A stretch of 64,000 nt of DNA from a candidate division TM6 bacterium UASB340 (GCA_001468925.1 LDIX01000005.1:2184-66183); one strand, 5' to 3'. Shown: positions 19,924 through 29,347, numbered from the stretch's first letter. Numbers and translations: made by a program. Notes: a model not told the origin generated them from the sequence alone.

Positions 19924-19945
19924 AAACAATATATGACTCAGTTTT

Positions 19946-19975
19946 TACCCAGGCTTTGACAAACATGCCTGGGTA
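19946..19975. terminator. bidirectional terminator between convergent genes
   Basis: 9-bp GC-rich stem TACCCAGGC / GCCTGGGTA with a 12-nt loop and AT/T-rich flanks. Confidence 0.6.
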
Positions 19976-19991
19976 TCTAATTTTATTTGTT

Positions 19992-20735
19992 TTATATTAC
20001 AGGTGATTTTGTAAATATATTTTTTACAAAATCCCACCAGAGCGTGAAATATATCGAAGTTAACGAACTTTGATAACTGGAATCATTAATTATGTATTTG
20101 TTGTACTTTTCTTTTTTAATTTCGTATATAACTTTTTCTCTTATTTTAAGTGCAATGTCTATTGCATTTGTGTTCAAATAATTTTCACCGTATTTATTGT
20201 ATTGATCAAACATGTCGTCAAACGTTACACATAATTCTTCCGGCATAAAATTTCTCAAATTTATATGTAAATTGTTTTCTGGGTTTTTATTATAATTTTC
20301 AAAAAACCATTTTAATATATTAACAATTTTATTTTTTAAGACTGTGTTATGTACAATTTTATTCATTCCTTTATACAGAAGGTAAACAAATGGTACAACG
20401 ATGATCCCAATAAACGCTAACCCTCCGGCTTCTTCTTCATTTATGCGCCCCCCTTTTATTTTGGGATAAAATATATATGTTAATGCTGCTATATAAGGGG
20501 TAAACGCTATTAATTTGGGTATTAGTTCTAGAGTTGAAAATTCTTTTGATGGATATTGAATTAGTAAATTGTCAACGAAATCCCATGGGTTTTGTTGATA
20601 GTGAATTTTTTCCATTTTAAGATAATTCAGTTCTGAATTTAAATTTGCATAAATTGAATTTGCATTTGCCAAAAGTAGTGTTACAAAAATTATTTTTATT
20701 TTAGATTTTAACATATATTCCTTTTGAAAAATCAT
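19992..20735 (-). CDS. hypothetical membrane protein, paralogue A of a tandem pair
   Basis: Signal peptide plus two central TM segments. It shares motifs with 21035..21712: YP.E.FS, TPYIA.L..F, I.KWF..NY and INL..F.PE. Confidence 0.55.
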   Translation of the reverse strand: MIFQKEYMLKSKIKIIFVTLLLANANSIYANLNSELNYLKMEKIHYQQNPWDFVDNLLIQYPSKEFSTLELIPKLIAFTPYIAALTYIFYPKIKGGRINEEEAGGLAFIGIIVVPFVYLLYKGMNKIVHNTVLKNKIVNILKWFFENYNKNPENNLHINLRNFMPEELCVTFDDMFDQYNKYGENYLNTNAIDIALKIREKVIYEIKKEKYNKYIINDSSYQSSLTSIYFTLWWDFVKNIFTKSPVI

Positions 20736-21034
20736 TTCAATTAATGTAATGTTTATTAATCGCAGTTTATTTAAAATAAAGATTTTTACAACAAAAAATA
20801 ACAGGTTTTTATACCGGCTATTTTAACAATTAAATTTTTATATTTGTTAGAATCGTTGATTTCTCGAATTGTCAAAGCTGGTGTACCTTAATTGACTTAT
20901 TCAGGAACAATTCTATAGAATTTGATTTTGGTTTGCAAAATATAAAAACAGTATTTGATTCATTTAATTTGCATGTATAATTTGAAAACAAGGTTTTGTT
21001 ATTTATGTAAAACCTGTGATTATCAAGTATTTTA

Positions 21035-21712
21035 TTAGTAAGATATTAATTTTGTCTTTGTAAGATTCGTATGAAATGAAGGTGCAATTTTTATTGTTGT
21101 CTTGCTTGAATTTGAACTCTGAGTTGAATAATTAATGATTTGTTTTATAAATTTTTCTAAATTGTCATTTATATATTTATTTTCAAGTTTTATGTATTCT
21201 TCATGTATTTTATCAAAAATTTCATATTTATCTTCTGGAACAAATTTTTTAAAATTTAAATTTATATTCGCATTTAAATCTGGATCATAATTATCACAAA
21301 ACCATTTTATGGTTTTGTGAATCTTGTCCTTTTGTGAGATTCCCTCTGTAAAGTATTCAGTTAACGAATAAAGAATTCCACTAGGAATTAATGTAATTAT
21401 AAGTGTGATTATAGTTAAAATAATTGCATCGTCTCTTAAAGAAGAAAAATAGTTTTCATACCATTTATTTTTTATAAAGAAATATAATAATGCAATGTAT
21501 GGAGTTGCAGCTCCAATTATTGGAAATGTATCATATTTGGAAAAAACTTCTTTAGGATAGTCATAAAAAATTGTATATAAAAATTCTTTATTATGTTCTG
21601 TATAATAAGTTTCTTGTGCTTGTGTAAATTCGAGTTTTTGATAAGAATTTAAAGTGTTGGTAATTATAATAATTGCTGAAAAGATTAAGAGTTTAAAATT
21701 TTTATTAAACAT
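21035..21712 (-). CDS. hypothetical membrane protein, paralogue B of a tandem pair
   Basis: See paralogue A. The upstream non-coding segment (TTTTTACAACAAAAA...ATTTT.A.A.ATTAAA) is also duplicated. Confidence 0.55.
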   Translation of the reverse strand: MFNKNFKLLIFSAIIIITNTLNSYQKLEFTQAQETYYTEHNKEFLYTIFYDYPKEVFSKYDTFPIIGAATPYIALLYFFIKNKWYENYFSSLRDDAIILTIITLIITLIPSGILYSLTEYFTEGISQKDKIHKTIKWFCDNYDPDLNANINLNFKKFVPEDKYEIFDKIHEEYIKLENKYINDNLEKFIKQIINYSTQSSNSSKTTIKIAPSFHTNLTKTKLISY

Positions 21713-21786
21713 AGAAAGTCCTGTTTAATTGAAACTATAATAATATTTTTAGTCTATTTAAAATCAATTTTTTTACAACAAAAATA

Positions 21787-21804
21787 GCCAGCGTTTACAC
21801 TGGC
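21787..21804 (-). terminator. terminator candidate ending the toxin/immunity operon
   Basis: GCCAG-N8-CTGGC, followed on the minus strand by TATTTTTGTTGT. It lies 34 nt downstream of the stop of the 88-aa gene. Confidence 0.45.
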
Positions 21805-21837
21805 CATTTTCATACATTAAAATAGAGTGTGGGCTAA

Positions 21838-22104
21838 TTATTTCTCTACAAGCTGTTCTAAATCCTTCCAATAACTAGTATCTATTCCATAATAAAGGCA
21901 TTGTTCCTTTATTAATTCGAAAACTTTATGTGAAATTTTAGTATCGAATTCATATATTTGTGTACATAAATCTTCATAAGCCATCATCTTTTCCCCAGCC
22001 ATATAATTTTCTATAAAGTTTTTTATATCAAATTTTCTCATTTTTTTTTCCAAATTATTTATAATAAATTTGGATTTTTCGTCTAATGCATCTTGAGAAA
22101 GCAT
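21838..22104 (-). CDS. MafI-like small immunity protein (putative)
   Basis: 88 aa. The core ENYMAGEKMMAYEDLCTQIYEFDTKISHKVFELIKEQCLYYGIDTSYWKDL fits my recollection of the MafI-family pattern (E.G.A.E.LCdQ.yEyd..Is...y..i......g.d...W..L). It is the last gene of a toxin-like operon. Confidence 0.5.
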   Translation of the reverse strand: MLSQDALDEKSKFIINNLEKKMRKFDIKNFIENYMAGEKMMAYEDLCTQIYEFDTKISHKVFELIKEQCLYYGIDTSYWKDLEQLVEK

Positions 22105-22105
22105 C

Positions 22106-22237
22106 TTAGTCCTTTTTAAAATTTAATTTTTTAATATTAAATGAAACTTGTGGTCCATTCAATGGATAACCTTTAACTATATCAACACTTGCTGGTTCTG
22201 GATTTTCGCTAATAATTTCAAGCGCTTCCTCAACCAA
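22106..22237 (-). pseudogene. orphan fragment homologous to the pre-CT junction of the upstream toxin gene
   Basis: The frame has no ATG (a TTG is possible at 22237). It reads (L)VEEALEIISENPEPASVDIVKGYPLNG..., compared with toxin residues VEEALETISQNPELAKIEKNLYKNVDIVVKEG. At the DNA level, 22192-22234 versus 23231-23273 gives 35/43 identical by my hand alignment. The stop lies 1 nt before the next ATG. Confidence 0.4.
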
Positions 22238-22247
22238 ATCAGTATAT

Positions 22248-22763
22248 TTATGATGATTGTTGATTTATTTTTAGATTTTCAATTTCTTCTGCTGATAAGT
22301 CTTTAACTTCAATTAAACAAAGTGCTTTTTTTTCATTAAAGCCAAAAATTACTCTTTCATTAGCAACTTTTAAATTTATTTTGTCATTTGAAAAGATAAT
22401 AAAAAGATTATTGTTTGAAAGAATTGCCTCAAAATTTATTGGCTCTTCAACAACAAATTGGTTGCCATATTTTTTTACATCAAATACAGGTGATCCATTT
22501 TTTGTATTTGCATTTTTATCACATGCTGAATATTGTTGAATAACCTTAATTTTTGGAAGTAAGGTCATAGTTATTGATTTAATAAATCCACTTTCTTGCT
22601 CCAATAATAATTCGAGTAAAGTTTTTCCCATGTAACCAGTCTTCCAATACATAGATGGAGACCAATTTATAGGATTGAAGTAAAAATCTATATCTATTGG
22701 GATATAATAATCAGATTTTACATTTATTTGAGTAACATTTTTAATAGTTTTTAATTTCAACAT
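22248..22763 (-). CDS. putative cognate immunity protein
   Basis: A 171-aa cytoplasmic-looking ORF beginning 30 nt after the toxin stop, with its own AAGGAA RBS. The call rests on position only. I do not recognise the family. Confidence 0.45.
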   Translation of the reverse strand: MLKLKTIKNVTQINVKSDYYIPIDIDFYFNPINWSPSMYWKTGYMGKTLLELLLEQESGFIKSITMTLLPKIKVIQQYSACDKNANTKNGSPVFDVKKYGNQFVVEEPINFEAILSNNNLFIIFSNDKINLKVANERVIFGFNEKKALCLIEVKDLSAEEIENLKINQQSS

Positions 22764-22793
22764 AGCAAATTCCTTTTATTTTTATGTTGGCAT

Positions 22794-25346
22794 TTACGGC
22801 CTATAAATAGCATGCTTTACAACAGACAATAATCCATTTTCTCTAGGTGGACTAAATACAAAACCCCATTGGCCTATCACAATTTCATCGCCATAGATAA
22901 GCCCAAATTTTGAAGCTTTATTAATAGCTGCATGAAAACTTTTTAATATTATTTGGCTTTCAATTGATAAACTGTGTCGTGCTGGAAGTCTATCTAAATA
23001 CTCTTTCATATGTTTCGTTGCATTTGGAGCAATCCATAATTCAATATCATTAACTTTAAGTCTAAATGATCTTGGAATTTTTGTTCCAGGATACATCTCA
23101 TCTGTTGCCTCTATATAATCCCATACTGTAGAAGTTTTTTTAATTACTTGGGATATTTTTTCTTTATTATTTCGTACCCCTTCTTTAACAACTATATCAA
23201 CATTTTTATATAGATTTTTTTCTATTTTTGCTAGTTCTGGATTTTGGCTTATTGTCTCAAGAGCTTCTTCAACTTTTTCAACACCATGTTTTTCGGCAAT
23301 TCCGACAACATTTGAACCTTCAACAAAACTTTTAGCAACAGGCATTACAGCTTTTTTAAGGCAATCAGTTTTTTCATTAATTTCATTAAGCACTTTGCAT
23401 GTAGCAACTTCAGTTTTAACCAAACTTGCAACATTTTTGAAATATCCTTTAAGTCCTTTTGCAACGCCCAAGGCTTTGCCTTGTACAATATTATCTAAAA
23501 AAAATCCTACTGAAACTTCTACGGATTTTGATATTTTTTCTTCATATGGCAATTGTGAAAAATTTTTTATTTTTTTAATAGCTAACTTTTTAAATGTATC
23601 TGTATTGGTCAATGTCATATAACCAAACTGACCTAAATCCAAAAAAAGTTTTGCCATAGCAATTTGAGGCGCTGTAACAATCACAGCACTATATCCAACA
23701 TCTTTTAAAACTAAAGTTGGATTTTCTTTATATCTTCCTACAAAATTTTTACCACTATTAACAGTTCCATCACCAATAGCATTTAAAATATTGTAAGTTA
23801 TTTTTGTTGCATTTAATAAAGAGGTTGAAAGGTCTGTAGCATCTTTTGCAATAACGGTTTGATTTTCATTGCAAAATGTCATGGCTAAATCCAAGCCCTG
23901 ATTTACAACTTCACATGTATGAAGAGCATAATCTTTGGCATGATCGGTTAAGAAGTGTTTTTGTTCGAATGGATCTTCTTGAGTTACTTGTTTATAAAAA
24001 TCATTAACTTCTTGTTCAGCCCAAATTATATTGTTTTTAAGATTTTTTTGATCCATATCAATTTCGGAATCTATTTTTTGGAATAAATCTTGTGGCGCAA
24101 TTTTTTCATTTATTGAATTTTTAGAAGAATTGAATTGTTCTGATAAGTTAGATGAATAAATTGATTTTTCAGTTTCATCCAGTTTTTTATTGTTATCAGA
24201 AGAGCTTTGTGAATATTTTCTAAAGAAATTTTTTCCAGATTCAAATAGGTTCTGAGAAGGATACCCATTTATTGACGTTGCAATATTTCTTGAATTAGCC
24301 AAAAATCTTCTTGTTGTATTACTTAAATGAATTCCAACCGTTTTGGGTTCTTCTATTGGTTCAGATTCATAAACAAATACATCCGTTTCATTTGGTTTTA
24401 AATCTGTTAATTCAGTTTCAAGTGTAGTTACATTTGGAATCCCTATGTCCTCATTTTCACTCAATATTATAGTATCAATATAATCATTTTCCATTTTCAT
24501 AGGTATTTGTTGCTCTGGCTCAATATTTATTTCTGTGTCTTGGATATTTGTATCCTGAATCGTCACGTTTTCTATTGACATATCATCAATTGTAGAAAAA
24601 TTAACACTAGTATTTTTAGAATTGATTGGAGTTAAATTTTCTATTGGTTCATTAATTATGATACCTTCAAATTTAGGTAATTCAGGTTTACTTTTTTTTA
24701 TTTCTTCGAATTTATTTATAATATTAAGAGGTTCTGGAATAGTTAATTTTTCTGTATTTAAAATTTCACGTTTTTGTGTTTCTTGTTGTTTTATATTTTT
24801 AATTTTCTTTTTAAATATATCTATTTCACACTCAACTTTTTTTTCAATTGCTGTTCTTGGCCTACCAAAAATTTGAATATCCAAGTGTTTTTTGAGCCAT
24901 TTTCTAGGTGTAACCAAGGTACTCCTTTTAACTGTTTTGTTATTTGAAAGTTTCGCTTTAGTTAAACACACCGTATTACGCCATTCATCAGAATTTTGAA
25001 GTTTATCTTTATACAATTTTAAATTTTCTAATGATTTTTCTAGTTCACTTAAAGAACCATTTTCCAAAATATTTGATATATTATTTTGAAAATTTTTGTA
25101 GTTAGCTATCGTTGCCGTTGATGATAATTTATCAAAAAAATTTAAATAACATTTAGTTTTTTCTGAGGTTTGATAATTTGGATTTATATTTGTACTATCA
25201 AAGCAATTATCGCTCAATTGAAAGAATTTAGTTTCTAAACGATAATCTCCCGTTTTAGAATTAAAACTAATTTTGTCCATGCAATTACCATTTTCGAAAA
25301 ATGTGATCATAAAAATTAATATAAGATTTTTTAAAAACTTCTTCAT
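22794..25346 (-). CDS. large secreted polymorphic-toxin-like protein
   Basis: 850 aa with a signal peptide, a long low-complexity/acidic N-terminal half, a hydrophobic/Gly-rich central part, and a discrete C-terminal module of about 145 aa (…IPRSFRLKVNDIELWIAPNATKHMKEYL…). Small immunity-like genes follow it. I do not recognise the catalytic family of the C-terminal module. Confidence 0.5.
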   Translation of the reverse strand: MKKFLKNLILIFMITFFENGNCMDKISFNSKTGDYRLETKFFQLSDNCFDSTNINPNYQTSEKTKCYLNFFDKLSSTATIANYKNFQNNISNILENGSLSELEKSLENLKLYKDKLQNSDEWRNTVCLTKAKLSNNKTVKRSTLVTPRKWLKKHLDIQIFGRPRTAIEKKVECEIDIFKKKIKNIKQQETQKREILNTEKLTIPEPLNIINKFEEIKKSKPELPKFEGIIINEPIENLTPINSKNTSVNFSTIDDMSIENVTIQDTNIQDTEINIEPEQQIPMKMENDYIDTIILSENEDIGIPNVTTLETELTDLKPNETDVFVYESEPIEEPKTVGIHLSNTTRRFLANSRNIATSINGYPSQNLFESGKNFFRKYSQSSSDNNKKLDETEKSIYSSNLSEQFNSSKNSINEKIAPQDLFQKIDSEIDMDQKNLKNNIIWAEQEVNDFYKQVTQEDPFEQKHFLTDHAKDYALHTCEVVNQGLDLAMTFCNENQTVIAKDATDLSTSLLNATKITYNILNAIGDGTVNSGKNFVGRYKENPTLVLKDVGYSAVIVTAPQIAMAKLFLDLGQFGYMTLTNTDTFKKLAIKKIKNFSQLPYEEKISKSVEVSVGFFLDNIVQGKALGVAKGLKGYFKNVASLVKTEVATCKVLNEINEKTDCLKKAVMPVAKSFVEGSNVVGIAEKHGVEKVEEALETISQNPELAKIEKNLYKNVDIVVKEGVRNNKEKISQVIKKTSTVWDYIEATDEMYPGTKIPRSFRLKVNDIELWIAPNATKHMKEYLDRLPARHSLSIESQIILKSFHAAINKASKFGLIYGDEIVIGQWGFVFSPPRENGLLSVVKHAIYRP

Positions 25347-25371
25347 AAAACCTCCATCTATGAATTATTCT

Positions 25372-25412
25372 ATGAGGTTAGTTTGTTCCATTTACCAACA
25401 AACTAACCTCAT
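25372..25412 (-). promoter_or_regulatory. 16-bp perfect-stem hairpin between the pentapeptide gene and the toxin gene
   Basis: ATGAGGTTAGTTTGTT (25372-25387) pairs with AACAAACTAACCTCAT (25397-25412) across a 9-nt loop. Only 25 nt, including a GGAGG RBS, separate it from the toxin start codon. Confidence 0.55.
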
Positions 25413-25421
25413 ATGTTTAAA

Positions 25422-26897
25422 TTATATTTTTTTTGTTGCAGCAAGTTTTATTTTTGGGGTTTCCTTTAATTCTATTATTGTTGAGGTGTCCAAGGTTGAT
25501 TTTTGGGGATCTTTTATGTTAAGTAAATCCTTTTGTAATTTAAATTCATGATTTAATACACTTTTTTGTGCTCCAACACTAATAAGTCCACCTGTATATG
25601 TACTTACAAGTCCACCAACAACCCCACCAGTAATATCAACAAGTTTTTCTTCAAAATTATCAGTTGCATAATCAATGATTTTGCCTATTCCGGATTTAAT
25701 AAAATGTACATCTCCAAAATTTCTAAACATATTTTTGAAATATAGTTCAGGATCTGTAAAGGTTTTTTCATAACTACTTAAATCTTTTTCTAACTGTTTT
25801 TTTATTTCTATTCGTTCAGTTGAGCCCGTTTGTATTTTTTTATTATAATCACCTTTGTATGTTGATTTGTAGAACGTACAATTGTCTACGAGTTTAAGAG
25901 AATCTAAGTTTTTGCAGGCATTTTCACCAAAAATCCAAAACGTACATTTTTTGAAAATAACATTTATTAGTGATGCCAAAAGAAAATTAACTTTTTTAAA
26001 TTCACAATGTCTAAATATTGTAGGTTTGTTTCCAGATTGCAAAATAATATTTTTGAAATTTACATCATCAAATATTATCCAGGATAAGCGACATCCTGAT
26101 AAAATTGCTGATTTGAAATTTGATTTATTAATAATCATGTTCATAACAGTACAATTGTCTAATATTGTGTTTGCAAAAATTGTTTTATTTACTATTGCTT
26201 TGTTAAAATTTGAATTTTTGATTAAAGATCCTGAAAAATTTGTATCATTCAAATTTGAATCAATAAAATTTGAACTAAAAATTCTACTCTTTTGTATATT
26301 TGCCGAATTCAATTTTGTTAATACAAATGAAGTATTAATAATTTTATCGTTGTTAGATATGTCTGATTTGCTTAAATCTGCATTTTCAAAGTCTGTTGAA
26401 GTTAAGTTGGCTTGAATTAAAATAGCAGCTACTAATTTGGAATCTTTCAGATCAGAATTTTGTAAATTAGAATTTTCTAAATTTGCCATAATAAGAATAA
26501 TTCCTGCTAAATTTTTATTATTCAGCAAAGTATTACTCAAATCAAAGTTTTCAAAACTTTTTGTAGTTCTTTCACCCATTGAGTATAACTCTATTTGATT
26601 TACAGCTTCTTTAATATTTGAATCATCTATTTCACCAAAATTATCCTCTGATATTCCTTCATCTATATCATTTGGATCATCAGTAGCCCCTTTGCAAGAT
26701 AAAGAAAAAAGGTGCCAAAACTTTTTTAATTTTGACACCTTTAAATTTTTTTCTTCAATTTGAGTTGTAACCTGCGGTGGGTTTGGATCGCCAATATCGT
26801 CTTCGGATATTTCCGATGGACCCATAGAAAATATATTGGAAATGATAATGAAAGAGAAAACGGACGTTAAGAAAGCGGTTGTTTTTAAATTCTTCAT
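25422..26897 (-). CDS. secreted pentapeptide-repeat protein
   Basis: Signal peptide, then about 200 aa of A(D/N)LxX-type pentapeptide repeats (ANLENSNLQNSDLKDSKL..., ANLTSTDFENADLSKSDIS...), and a C-terminal Gly-rich hydrophobic patch GGVVGGLVSTYTGGLISVG. Confidence 0.8.
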   Translation of the reverse strand: MKNLKTTAFLTSVFSFIIISNIFSMGPSEISEDDIGDPNPPQVTTQIEEKNLKVSKLKKFWHLFSLSCKGATDDPNDIDEGISEDNFGEIDDSNIKEAVNQIELYSMGERTTKSFENFDLSNTLLNNKNLAGIILIMANLENSNLQNSDLKDSKLVAAILIQANLTSTDFENADLSKSDISNNDKIINTSFVLTKLNSANIQKSRIFSSNFIDSNLNDTNFSGSLIKNSNFNKAIVNKTIFANTILDNCTVMNMIINKSNFKSAILSGCRLSWIIFDDVNFKNIILQSGNKPTIFRHCEFKKVNFLLASLINVIFKKCTFWIFGENACKNLDSLKLVDNCTFYKSTYKGDYNKKIQTGSTERIEIKKQLEKDLSSYEKTFTDPELYFKNMFRNFGDVHFIKSGIGKIIDYATDNFEEKLVDITGGVVGGLVSTYTGGLISVGAQKSVLNHEFKLQKDLLNIKDPQKSTLDTSTIIELKETPKIKLAATKKI

Positions 26898-26980
26898 TTT
26901 TATAACCTCCTATTTAAAACATTAAACTTAAAAGATTTAAAACATACCGTAATTAATTATATCCTATTTGAAATAAAAGA

Positions 26981-27015
26981 AAAACGGGTGTTTTTTGCAA
27001 AAAACACCCGTTTTT
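26981..27015 (-). terminator. Rho-independent terminator of the helicase gene
   Basis: AAAACGGGTGTTTTTT / AAAAAACACCCGTTTT near-perfect inverted repeat followed by a T-rich run on the minus strand. It lies 11 nt downstream of the helicase stop. Confidence 0.7.
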
Positions 27016-27025
27016 ATGGGAAATT

Positions 27026-29347
27026 TCATACTTTTGTTACAAAGCTTGATAAAATTTTTTTCTCACCGATTTTAAAAGCTATTGTTAAATTATAATTTCC
27101 ATCATTTCCGGCTTCTACAAATTTAATTAAACCGACGCCAAATTTAGGATGTGATACGAGTTGATTTTTTGACCAGATTGAATTTTGCAAAATTTGTGTT
27201 TTTTGTGCTGAGAAAAAATTTTGTTTATTTTTATTTGTTTTAGCTTTTAATATTTTACTAGGTTTATTTTGAGCCTTAATATGTGATGATTCTTTAAACT
27301 CCATGTTTTTTGCAAGATCGTTTGCAAAGTCTTGAAATGTAAGTACGGTACTGCTTTTTACTTGAAGCCAGTTTTTAAATTCTGAATTTATTTGTAACTG
27401 TGACATTTCGCAAATATCGATATTCGTAATTAAATTATCCGGTATTTCTGTTAAAAATCTGGATATTAACTGATCGCTGATTTGTCCATAACTATTTCTA
27501 TAAATAGCTCTTGTTAAAATCAATCGTTCTTTCGCTCGAGTAATACCTACATAAAATAATCTGCGTTCTTCTTCTATTTCTTTATTCTCATTTAATGATC
27601 GAGAGCTTGGCAATACACCTTCTTCCAATCCGGTTATAAATACAATATCAAATTCAAGCCCTTTGGCCGCATGAAGCGTCATGCATTGAACCTGATTTTG
27701 ATCATTATCCTGTGCTTCATTTTTTTCTTGCATCAAGCTGACTTGATATAAAAATTCATGCAAATTATTTTTGACACTGTCTTTTTCAAAATTATAAATG
27801 GATTGAACAAGCTCTTTAACGTTATCTTTTTTTGATTCGGCTTCTTGAGGATCGTATTCTTTTTCTAAAAAACTAAAATAGTCTACTGCATCAATAAGTT
27901 CTTCGATAATATCACTTGGGCGTTCAAAACTTTCAAGTTTTTTATATAATTCCAAAAATTTTAAAATAGCTTCTTTTTTTGTAGCAGTAATTTTGTATTC
28001 AATTTTATTTATTATATTTTCAAGAATTTTTTTAAAATCAAATAATGGATTAAATATATATTCCGTGTTTAATATTTCTTCGAACTTATCGCCCAAACCT
28101 CTGTTTGGACAGTTAATTATTCTTTCAAGACTTATTTTATCGTAAGGGTTTATTAATAATCTTAAGTATGCAAGTAAATCTTTTATTTCTTTGCGTTCGT
28201 AAAATCTTATTCCGCCAACTATTTTATATGGAATGGAATTTGCAATTAAAGCTTCTTCTATATTTCTGGATTGATAATGAGTTCTGTATAAAATTGCTAT
28301 TTCGTTAAGACTTTTTTCTTTGGGCAAATTTTCTATGAAATTTGTAATGGCATAAGCTTCTTGTTTGCCCGATCTTGAGACGATGGAAAGAATTCTATTG
28401 CTTGCTTTTTTTTCTGACCAAAGTTTTTTATTTGTTCTATTTTTATTGTTCAAAATAATATGATTTGCAGCTTCAAGTATTGGTGTAACGGTTCTATAAT
28501 TTTGTTCAATTTTTATTAATTTTACAGGAGCAAAATCGTTTTGAAAGTTTTGCATATTTGTTGCCATAGCACCTCTCCATGAATAAATGGATTGGTCTTC
28601 ATCGCCTACGGCACATAGTGAATCAATATTAAACTTATTATTTTCATCGGTACTCATAAGTTTTAAAAGTTCATGTTGTACCATATTTGTATCTTGGTAC
28701 TCATCAACTAAAAGATGTCGAATTTTATTTTGAAAATTTTTTCTAAAATTTAAATTTGTTTTAAATATTTTTAAAATTTCAAGCAACAGGTCATCAAAAT
28801 CAAAACTGTGAGATTTTTGTTTTTCAGCTTCATATTCAAAATAAATTTCTTTTACTATCGGTATGGTAAATTCATCAAAATCATAATTCACTTTATTTTT
28901 GTAATTTGATATTTGATACAAAATATCTGTCGTCGAAAATTGTTTTTCAAGACCATATTTTTTTATAATTTTTTTTATTAAAGATTTTTGATCGTCTGCA
29001 TCTATAATTGAAAAATTTGTAAAATTTAATAATGTTGGATTTGATCTTAATAATAATAAACAGTATGAATGAAATGTGCCAATATAAGGCAATTTAAGGC
29101 TTTGGTCTAAAAATTTTGAAATACGTTCTTTCATCTCATTTGCAGCTTTGTTTGTAAATGTTAATGCTACGATTGCTTGAGGATTGACATTATTATTTAA
29201 AATTAGATTTGCTATACGAGTTGTAATAACTCTGGTTTTTCCGGATCCTGCTCCAGCAATTACAATTGCCGGACCTGATTCAAAGATTACGGCATTTCTT
29301 TGCGGCTCATTTAATTCTTTATTTAAAAATTGATTAAAATTTGTCAT
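27026..29347 (-). CDS. UvrD/PcrA/Rep-family ATP-dependent DNA helicase
   Basis: Motif I AGAGSGKTRV, motif II LLVDEYQDTN, motif III GDEDQSIYSWRGA, QNYRT, and VGITRAKERL near the C-terminal part. Confidence 0.9.
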   Translation of the reverse strand: MTNFNQFLNKELNEPQRNAVIFESGPAIVIAGAGSGKTRVITTRIANLILNNNVNPQAIVALTFTNKAANEMKERISKFLDQSLKLPYIGTFHSYCLLLLRSNPTLLNFTNFSIIDADDQKSLIKKIIKKYGLEKQFSTTDILYQISNYKNKVNYDFDEFTIPIVKEIYFEYEAEKQKSHSFDFDDLLLEILKIFKTNLNFRKNFQNKIRHLLVDEYQDTNMVQHELLKLMSTDENNKFNIDSLCAVGDEDQSIYSWRGAMATNMQNFQNDFAPVKLIKIEQNYRTVTPILEAANHIILNNKNRTNKKLWSEKKASNRILSIVSRSGKQEAYAITNFIENLPKEKSLNEIAILYRTHYQSRNIEEALIANSIPYKIVGGIRFYERKEIKDLLAYLRLLINPYDKISLERIINCPNRGLGDKFEEILNTEYIFNPLFDFKKILENIINKIEYKITATKKEAILKFLELYKKLESFERPSDIIEELIDAVDYFSFLEKEYDPQEAESKKDNVKELVQSIYNFEKDSVKNNLHEFLYQVSLMQEKNEAQDNDQNQVQCMTLHAAKGLEFDIVFITGLEEGVLPSSRSLNENKEIEEERRLFYVGITRAKERLILTRAIYRNSYGQISDQLISRFLTEIPDNLITNIDICEMSQLQINSEFKNWLQVKSSTVLTFQDFANDLAKNMEFKESSHIKAQNKPSKILKAKTNKNKQNFFSAQKTQILQNSIWSKNQLVSHPKFGVGLIKFVEAGNDGNYNLTIAFKIGEKKILSSFVTKV

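Follow-up and report, generated by a model that had tools for sequence, protein, structure and literature searches.

A very likely polymorphic toxin/immunity locus with a previously undescribed carrier family in a strain-specific genomic island of a Dependentiae bacterium

The described systems closest to the locus analyzed here are the CdiA/CdiI pair of Escherichia coli EC869 and the MafB/MafI systems of Neisseria. In EC869, the C-terminal (CT) toxin domain of CdiA binds EF-Tu at domain II and cleaves specific tRNAs within the acceptor stem, and the immunity protein CdiI masks the active site (PMC9071432); MafB provides a precedent for crossing of the inner membrane through Sec (PMC4287609). 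Here we analyzed a stretch of 64,000 nucleotides (nt) of DNA (hereinafter, the window; G+C content of 28 %) from the candidate division TM6 (Dependentiae) bacterium UASB340 (GCA_001468925.1, LDIX01000005.1:2184-66183), in which positions 21838-25346 encode, on the minus strand, a protein of 850 amino acids (aa) with a signal sequence, followed by a 171-aa protein, a short orphan frame and an 88-aa protein. Very likely, these genes constitute a polymorphic toxin/immunity locus whose carrier family has not been described before; the locus resides in a strain-specific island and is presumably directed against bacteria. Full-text searches of the literature turned up no account of polymorphic toxins from Dependentiae, so that, as far as these searches reach, the locus is the first such record for the phylum. 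The genome paper on a cultured member lists endoU nucleases as cytoplasmic enzymes that degrade host biopolymers (PMC6561590).

The C-terminal domain of the 850-aa protein (residues 728-850; 22797-23165, on the minus strand, as are all genes and domains described below) is an EC869-type CdiA-CT tRNA-cleaving ribonuclease (tRNase) with the BECR (Barnase/EndoU/Colicin/RelE) fold, in which two three-stranded sheets wrap a helix. Pfam and NCBIfam gave no match to the 850-aa protein, and phmmer aligned residues 728-849 with the crystallized E. coli EC869 CdiA-CT domain (PDB 7vmc_B) with an E-value of 2e-25 (92.6 bits, ~45 % identity). An AlphaFold model of the domain, built from an alignment of 30 sequences, reached a predicted local distance difference test (pLDDT) score of 89.2; in a Foldseek search, this model matched 7vmc_B (E 1e-11, template modelling scores of 0.84/0.93, root-mean-square deviation of 1.4 Å), and the next matches were ParE/RelE-type toxins, as expected for the BECR fold. 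The initial annotation of this DNA, which was made from the sequence alone, had conjectured that the C-terminal module might be an uncharacterized toxin fold; given the clear homology to a crystallized tRNase, this conjecture has to be abandoned. The same annotation was right in seeing a discrete module at the C-terminus but overestimated its size (about 145 aa): the domain comprises ~123 aa (728-850) and is preceded by a linker of ~40 aa (688-727).

In the EC869 toxin, the substitutions H216A, H281A and R271A lower toxicity, and Tyr220, Leu221, Gln235, Met237 and Tyr284 touch domain II of EF-Tu (PMC9071432). The counterparts of His216, His281 and Arg271 are all retained in the window toxin, as His779 (codon 23010-23012), His845 (codon 22812-22814) and Arg835, and these residues are conserved in 100, 99 and 86 %, respectively, of 146 homologous domains. 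The EF-Tu contacts are kept at four of the five positions (Tyr783, Leu784, Gln798 and Tyr848 are identical, and Met237 is replaced by Ile800), and Gln798 is invariant among the 146 homologs. An EF-Tu gene, which was sought for a check of the interface from the target side, is not present within the window.

The two small open reading frames (ORFs) downstream, which the initial annotation had called immunity-like, both fall in immunity families. The 171-aa protein has no Pfam or NCBIfam match; its residues 11-158 align in phmmer with residues 13-168 of CdiI-EC869 (7vmc_C; E 2.9e-8), and a profile of three homologs hits the same chain with an E-value of 7.6e-12. Homologs of this protein are also encoded behind EC869-type tips in two other loci, L005 (E 3e-16) and L009 (42 % identity, E 2e-37). 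This protein is thus predicted to be the cognate immunity protein of the tRNase, a member of the CdiI-EC869 family. The 88-aa protein, which has no sequence relative in the PDB, scores 29.3 bits (E 5.7e-7) against the NCBIfam model of MafI immunity proteins (NF033691), for which the curated cutoff is 31. A 90-aa gene located directly after an EndoU-tipped toxin in loci L007 and L008 is 59 % identical to it, and two copies in locus L004 are 51 % and 41 % identical; the NF033691 scores of the 90-aa L007 homolog and of a 92-aa L004 copy are 42.3 and 34.7 bits, respectively. Because these close homologs pass the cutoff, the 88-aa protein can be assigned to the MafI family by transitivity, and it appears to be an immunity protein cognate to an EndoU tip that the locus has lost.

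The relatives of the toxin were collected in an exhaustive HMMER search with residues 440-850 as the query, which yielded 547 proteins at E ≤ 0.001. Most of the matches cover only the last ~120 residues and are located at the C-termini of proteins of 120 to 3382 aa; the same tip is found at the end of Rhs proteins that carry PT-HINT or PT-TG, of CdiA proteins with two-partner secretion (TPS) and VENN features and of Fn3-repeat proteins, and is therefore a widely shared, mobile polymorphic-toxin module. A second set of matches covers the helical region (residues ~440-725), which largely coincides with the conserved, all-helical carrier domain (residues ~436-687; 23286-24041) shared by toxins with different tips. 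This region is matched by P0013 (E 4e-49), P0101, P0103, P0116, P0017 and P0111 (alignments A1 and A2), and it has no family match in Pfam, NCBIfam or PADLOC. Foldseek matches of the carrier model were generic helical repeats with template modelling scores below 0.3 and were discarded. Word-indexed protein searches with the 850-aa and 171-aa queries returned only the queries themselves and with the carrier alignment returned nothing, probably owing to AT-rich, low-complexity words, so that the family was found by the exhaustive search. A scan of representative genomes with a two-sequence carrier alignment detected no relative, and a metagenome scan detected a single locus, L010.

Comparison of these proteins points to a system in which the tip is exchanged on a constant carrier. 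P0017 and P0111 combine the carrier with an EC869-type tip as in the window, whereas the C-termini of P0013, P0103, P0101 and P0116 are unlike that of the window protein: Pfam calls an EndoU_bacteria domain in P0103, P0101 and P0116, and the tip of P0013 corresponds by alignment to that of P0103. The carrier of L010 bears an Ntox17 tip (E 5e-28). One carrier is therefore found with four types of tips, namely EC869-type, two EndoU types (P0101/P0116 and P0013/P0103) and Ntox17, in agreement with the variable C-terminus that the initial annotation had claimed; the homologs are not collinear in this region. In the seven-protein alignment A1, the similarity continues through the pre-toxin linker (residues 688-727; 23166-23285), which contains the motif G-VEKVEEALETISQNPELA, and ends just past it; hence the linker appears to be the recombination junction at which tips are swapped. 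The immunity genes track the type of the tip: a CdiI-like gene is located behind the EC869-type tip in the window, in L005, in L009 and, with a weak match, in L011, and MafI-like genes come after EndoU tips of the P0101/P0116 type in L004, L007 and L008. Behind P0013 (L006) lies an unrelated ORF of 349 aa. These comparisons show swapping of tips on one carrier, with co-variation of the immunity genes.

Arrays of orphan tips and immunity genes are present in L004 and L009. In the latter, a Dependentiae contig, positions 729-2951 look like an orphan toxin/immunity array that consists of a WapI-like immunity gene (PF24716, E 8e-7), a 166-aa piece with an ATG start that contains the linker and the tRNase (49 % identical to those of the window), and a CdiI-like gene. 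The Ntox17-tipped carrier of L010 (5228-8511, 41 % G+C) is split into frames of 129 and 598 aa, by a frameshift or a sequencing error, and is followed by a 118-aa gene of no assigned family; two adjacent ORFs on the opposite strand (110 and 99 aa) resemble, by eye only, an unrelated toxin-antitoxin pair.

The window itself seems to preserve traces of one such exchange. The orphan frame between the two immunity genes comprises 43 codons (22106-22237) with a TTG start and without an ATG, and probably is not expressed. Residues 691-705 of the 850-aa protein recur in the first 15 codons of this frame (VEEALEIISENPEPA), and at the DNA level the repeat extends over 46 nt with 83 % identity (23228-23273 in the linker and 22189-22234 at the head of the orphan frame). 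Residues 2-19 of the orphan match residues 692-709 of the toxin, and the match resumes after a short gap (VDIVKG). Residues 14-32 are similar to the C-terminus of the P0116 EndoU domain (E 4e-4), and the end of the orphan, GYPLNGPQVSF, aligns with GFPLNGVGVTC, the end of the EndoU domain in P0101. Thus, the orphan frame is a relic of a displaced EndoU tip that retains the linker motif and the last ~20 EndoU residues. In L004, L007 and L008, where the same carrier has an EndoU tip, the next gene is the homolog of the 88-aa protein of the window. The most likely history is that the locus once consisted of the carrier, an EndoU tip and the MafI-type immunity gene; an EC869-type tip together with its CdiI-type immunity gene would then have recombined in at the conserved linker motif, the displaced EndoU tip would have lost ~120 codons by deletion, leaving the 43-codon relic, and the old MafI-type immunity gene would have been retained, perhaps still protecting against neighbors that fire EndoU tips.

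With respect to the layout of the locus, the initial annotation proved accurate throughout. The gene for the 850-aa protein (22794-25346) starts 5 nt downstream of a GGAGG ribosome-binding site and encodes a classical N-terminal signal sequence; the 171-aa ORF (22248-22763) follows after 30 nt with its own AAAGGA site, and the 88-aa ORF (21838-22104), also with its own AAAGGA, begins 1 nt after the orphan frame. The three ORFs of 850, 171 and 88 aa can be considered real genes because all of them have significant homologs. The toxin/immunity unit is closed by a GC-rich, terminator-like hairpin at 21787-21804, accompanied by a U-run (21775-21804), with a predicted folding energy of -20.7 kcal/mol (z -4.2; none of 200 shuffled sequences was equally stable). 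A strong terminator is located at 27015-26980, after the uvrD-like gene, and it is possible that this terminator and the hairpin bracket one transcription unit that includes an upstream gene for a 491-aa pentapeptide-repeat protein. The 75 nt that separate the toxin gene from the pentapeptide gene contain a hairpin with a perfect 17-base-pair (bp) stem and no U tract (25371-25413; -24 kcal/mol, z -5.4, again with none of 200 shuffles equally stable), which might act in attenuation, processing or stability. A promoter scan was uninformative in the AT-rich window, with 50 sites observed and 49.8 expected.

The predicted signal sequence of the toxin (residues 1-22, MKKFLKNLILIFMITFFENGNC; 25281-25346), as read from the sequence, has a basic n-region, a hydrophobic core and a small residue preceding Met23, before which it would be cut. 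It is followed by a variable, low-complexity region (residues 23-435; 24042-25280) that is poorly conserved in alignment A1. A signal end of the form F/L - S/G/C/A - M (…LFSM, …IFSM, …NGNCM) is common to toxins and pentapeptide-repeat proteins, being present in both such genes of the window (25281-25346 and 26810-26897), in P0013, P0017, P0101 and P0116, and in the pentapeptide genes of L005 and L006; it may be a lineage-typical cleavage or sorting motif.

Two kinds of genes recur next to the toxin. The first is represented in the window by the 491-aa protein (25422-26897), with pentapeptide repeats (Pfam Pentapeptide, E 3e-20), a signal sequence and a Gly-rich hydrophobic C-terminus; such a protein is encoded just upstream of the toxin gene, or of a pair of membrane-protein and toxin genes, in the window, L004, L005 and L006. 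The second is a small membrane protein, in the window of 225 aa (21035-21712), which contains a signal sequence or first transmembrane segment, two central hydrophobic segments and a conserved C-terminal FxxNY...FVP...FD motif; its homologs flank the toxin gene in L004, L005, L006, L007 and L008 (E 1e-12 to 1e-33; alignment A4). These flanking membrane proteins are 190-250 aa long, and the window has two paralogs, the second of which (247 aa; 19992-20735) is 25 % identical to the first (E 1e-13) and 33 % identical to L006_205 (E 3e-32). Neither membrane protein has a Pfam or NCBIfam match. The intergenic stretch that contains the terminator hairpin (21751-21821) has a 78 % identical copy at 20764-20834, upstream of the 247-aa gene, from which we conclude that the genes for the 225-aa and 247-aa proteins are tandem duplicates that share an upstream element. 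In L004 (106-1772) and L005 (391-1401), membrane proteins encoded upstream of the pentapeptide gene give a weak match to a pre-toxin Hint domain (PF07591, E 4e-4); the window encodes no homolog of this Hint-like protein. The loci in which such neighbors occur (the window and L004-L008) all have a G+C content of 27-29 %, whereas the loci with ~40 % G+C, L010 and L011, have the carrier and neither neighbor. The pentapeptide-repeat and small membrane proteins probably are accessory factors for export or surface presentation of the toxin.

The whole system is contained in a strain-variable island (19934-27033) between the gene for a uvrD-like helicase and the 235-aa/LysE genes. The UvrD protein of the window falls in one cluster, at 90 % identity or higher, with proteins labelled Candidatus Dependentiae bacterium. 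In three sister genomes (GCA_018896115.1, GCA_022013625.1 and GCA_018897535.1), the flanks are ~95 % identical and the locus is absent; in the blastn comparison of the sister-genome locus L001 with the window, identity of ~95 % extends up to position 27034 and from position 19933. The locus is thus found in one of four sister genomes, that of the window included, and is accessory and strain-specific. In the sister loci L001, L002 and L003, the interior of the island is replaced, between uvrD and the 235-aa gene, by a 1.5-kb cassette (L001 9682-11181) that holds only a 123-aa and a 292-aa ORF. The 292-aa product is chimeric: residues 1-208 are 67 % identical to the 225-aa membrane protein of the window, and its C-terminal extension resembles residues 328-393 of the toxin (E 6e-9). 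Because such a junction is the scar expected of a deletion, the sister strains seem to hold a decayed version of the locus; this reading assumes that the membrane-protein gene preceded the toxin gene, as in L004, L005 and L007. On both sides of the sister cassette, the 3' end of uvrD recurs as a direct repeat of ~30 bp (ATTTTATCAAGCTTTGTAAC...), owing to which the sister UvrD proteins end in …VTRKK and that of the window in …VTKV.

By analogy with the described systems, the 850-aa protein would be exported by Sec via its signal sequence and would then pass an outer-membrane step. Members of the Dependentiae are enclosed by two membranes and possess Sec, components of type II secretion and outer-membrane vesicles. 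The helical carrier and the linker would present the 123-aa C-terminal RNase, which, in a non-immune cell, would dock on domain II of EF-Tu and cut the acceptor stem of particular tRNAs, and translation would stop; the 171-aa protein would mask the active site of the RNase within the producing cell and in kin cells. Enzymatic activity and dependence on EF-Tu are thus expected of the window toxin from its relationship to the EC869 enzyme. As for the target, we infer that it is competing Dependentiae or other bacteria that share the host cell or the habitat. The EF-Tu dependence of the toxin family and the retained immunity genes favor a target with bacterial-type translation, and the maintenance of an immunity gene for a tip that is no longer made argues that the opponents are bacteria that fire related toxins rather than the host.

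Several observations weigh against this interpretation. The obligate intracellular lifestyle leaves little opportunity for competition between bacteria. Within the tip, Arg762 (codon 23061-23063) and Gly828 (codon 22863-22865) occupy positions where more than 80 % of the 146 homologs have Glu, and Ser841 (codon 22824-22826) replaces Pro (the consensus Glu, Glu and Pro are found in 83-91 % of the 146 domains), so that activity or specificity could be altered; furthermore, Arg263 of EC869 is Gln in the window toxin. The carrier model is all-helical and of low confidence (pLDDT 52.8). A linked gene for a CdiB (Omp85-type) exporter is not found among the 491-, 225-, 247- and 235-aa neighbors in the window, to which this search was confined, so that no outer-membrane exporter is linked to the toxin among these genes. 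Finally, L008, L010 and L011 have no pentapeptide gene beside the toxin, and L010 and L011 also lack the membrane protein, which makes the role of both genes correlative.

The lifestyle of these bacteria could suggest a different target. The cultured members of Dependentiae live as obligate parasites inside cells and release numerous proteins as well as outer-membrane vesicles, and in one species the replicating bacteria are enwrapped by the mitochondrion of the host (PMC6561590). The tRNase might accordingly be an effector that acts on the protist host, for example on translation in the mitochondrion with its bacterial-type EF-Tu, and the immunity gene would be needed only by the producer until the toxin is exported; the Sec signal of the toxin and the conserved EF-Tu contacts would fit such a role. 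However, the retention of the orphan immunity gene makes sense only if neighbors fire such tips, the swapping of tips with co-varying immunity genes is a signature of inter-bacterial conflict, and the locus is dispensable in the three sister genomes and has no evident route into a host organelle, so that we consider a host-directed effector unlikely. Another explanation starts from the degenerate chimera of membrane-protein gene and toxin fragment at the same site in the sister genomes: together with the relic within the window and the substitutions at two conserved Glu positions, it could signify that the toxin is inactive and the system is being lost from a shrinking genome. Such decay is hard to reconcile with the intact frames of 850, 171 and 88 codons, with good ribosome-binding sites, with the retention of all residues known to matter for toxicity and with an intact cognate immunity gene, and we deem it very unlikely for the locus in the window.

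It is also conceivable that the locus belongs to an established delivery family, that is, two-partner contact-dependent inhibition (CDI), MafB, Rhs or LXG/type VII, or else is an intracellular toxin-antitoxin or anti-phage module. The homology of tip and immunity protein to EC869 CdiA-CT/CdiI, the MafI-family affiliation of the second immunity protein and the relationship of the fold to RelE/ParE are all compatible with such an assignment, and the initial annotation had likened the locus to MafB, Rhs, CdiA and LXG. The polymorphic toxin/immunity organization implied by that comparison is indeed present, but the delivery domains of these families are not: neither the 850-aa protein nor its relatives have a Pfam or NCBIfam match to TPS, haemagglutinin repeats, VENN, RHS, LXG or DUF1020, whereas TPS/VENN features are recognized in genuine CdiA proteins that end in this tip; the toxin has no match to RHS/YD repeats, the Rhs core or LXG, the only trace of the latter being a sub-threshold match (E 0.036) in the 292-aa chimera of L001; and DUF1020 (PF06255) has no match in the toxin even with sub-segments and E-values up to 10. 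Because these defining trafficking domains are absent, we reject membership in CDI, MafB, Rhs or LXG. Moreover, neither the adjacent ORFs of the island nor the flanking 235-aa ORF match a known secretion component in Pfam or NCBIfam, and the toxin is not accompanied by any type VI or type V component in the window. The length of 850 aa and the signal sequence argue against a toxin of a type II toxin-antitoxin module, and the anti-phage defense reading was dropped because PADLOC gave no match. Taken together, membership in an established family or module is extremely improbable, and a bacteria-directed toxin on its own carrier remains the preferred explanation. A further proposal, which we put forward tentatively and with some doubt, is that the carrier, the pentapeptide-repeat protein and the membrane protein constitute a hitherto unknown Sec-dependent delivery apparatus, confined to Dependentiae and low-GC relatives and used against rivals that co-infect the same protist; in a bolder version, the target of the EF-Tu-dependent tRNase would be the mitochondrion of the host.

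As a toxin, the tRNase is nothing out of the ordinary in this field, and the points of interest are the undescribed set of carrier and accessory genes and the competition among Dependentiae that it implies. The presence of a swappable, immunity-linked RNase in a parasite genome of ~1 Mb implies encounters and competition with relatives, which bears on the ecology of these bacteria in protists. To our knowledge, the outer-membrane step of MafB export is still unsolved, and the carrier with its two recurrent neighbors would offer a new, MafB-like example of how a diderm can export toxins independently of type V, VI or VII secretion. In addition, the EC869-type, EF-Tu-dependent tRNase and the corresponding immunity fold extend far beyond Proteobacteria and provide natural variation for studies of EF-Tu and tRNA recognition.

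Compared with CdiA-CT/CdiI of EC869 (7VMC; PMC9071432), the window system shares a tip of ~45 % identity with the same BECR fold, the His/His/Arg residues and the EF-Tu contact residues, as well as a homologous immunity protein of similar size (171 aa vs 179 aa in EC869) encoded immediately downstream. It differs in lacking CdiB, the TPS domain, the haemagglutinin repeats and VENN, the carrier being an unrelated, helical protein of 850 aa with a Sec signal, and in its host, which belongs to Dependentiae rather than to proteobacteria like E. coli. With Rhs and CdiA proteins that end in the same domain, only the tRNase is shared, and the delivery parts are entirely different. The resemblance to MafB/MafI of Neisseria (PMC4287609) is of the complementary kind: a signal sequence, a lineage-restricted carrier free of repeats, a conserved motif before a variable tip, a downstream immunity gene followed by cassettes of start-less tips and immunity genes, location in a genomic island, an adjoining gene of unassigned role, and the pairing of EndoU tips with MafI-family immunity proteins. 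Unlike MafB, the carrier of the window is not DUF1020, there is no MafA lipoprotein but instead the pentapeptide-repeat protein and the 190-250-aa membrane proteins, and the phylum is a different one. With the bacterial EndoU toxins (PF14436), whose domain is present in P0101, P0116 and P0103, the window has in common only the last ~20 residues and the immunity gene. By analogy, then, the locus would be EC869-like in its enzymology and MafB/MafI-like in its organization; the toxin and immunity modules are already known, and what is new is the carrier family with its linked genes, in reduced intracellular parasites.

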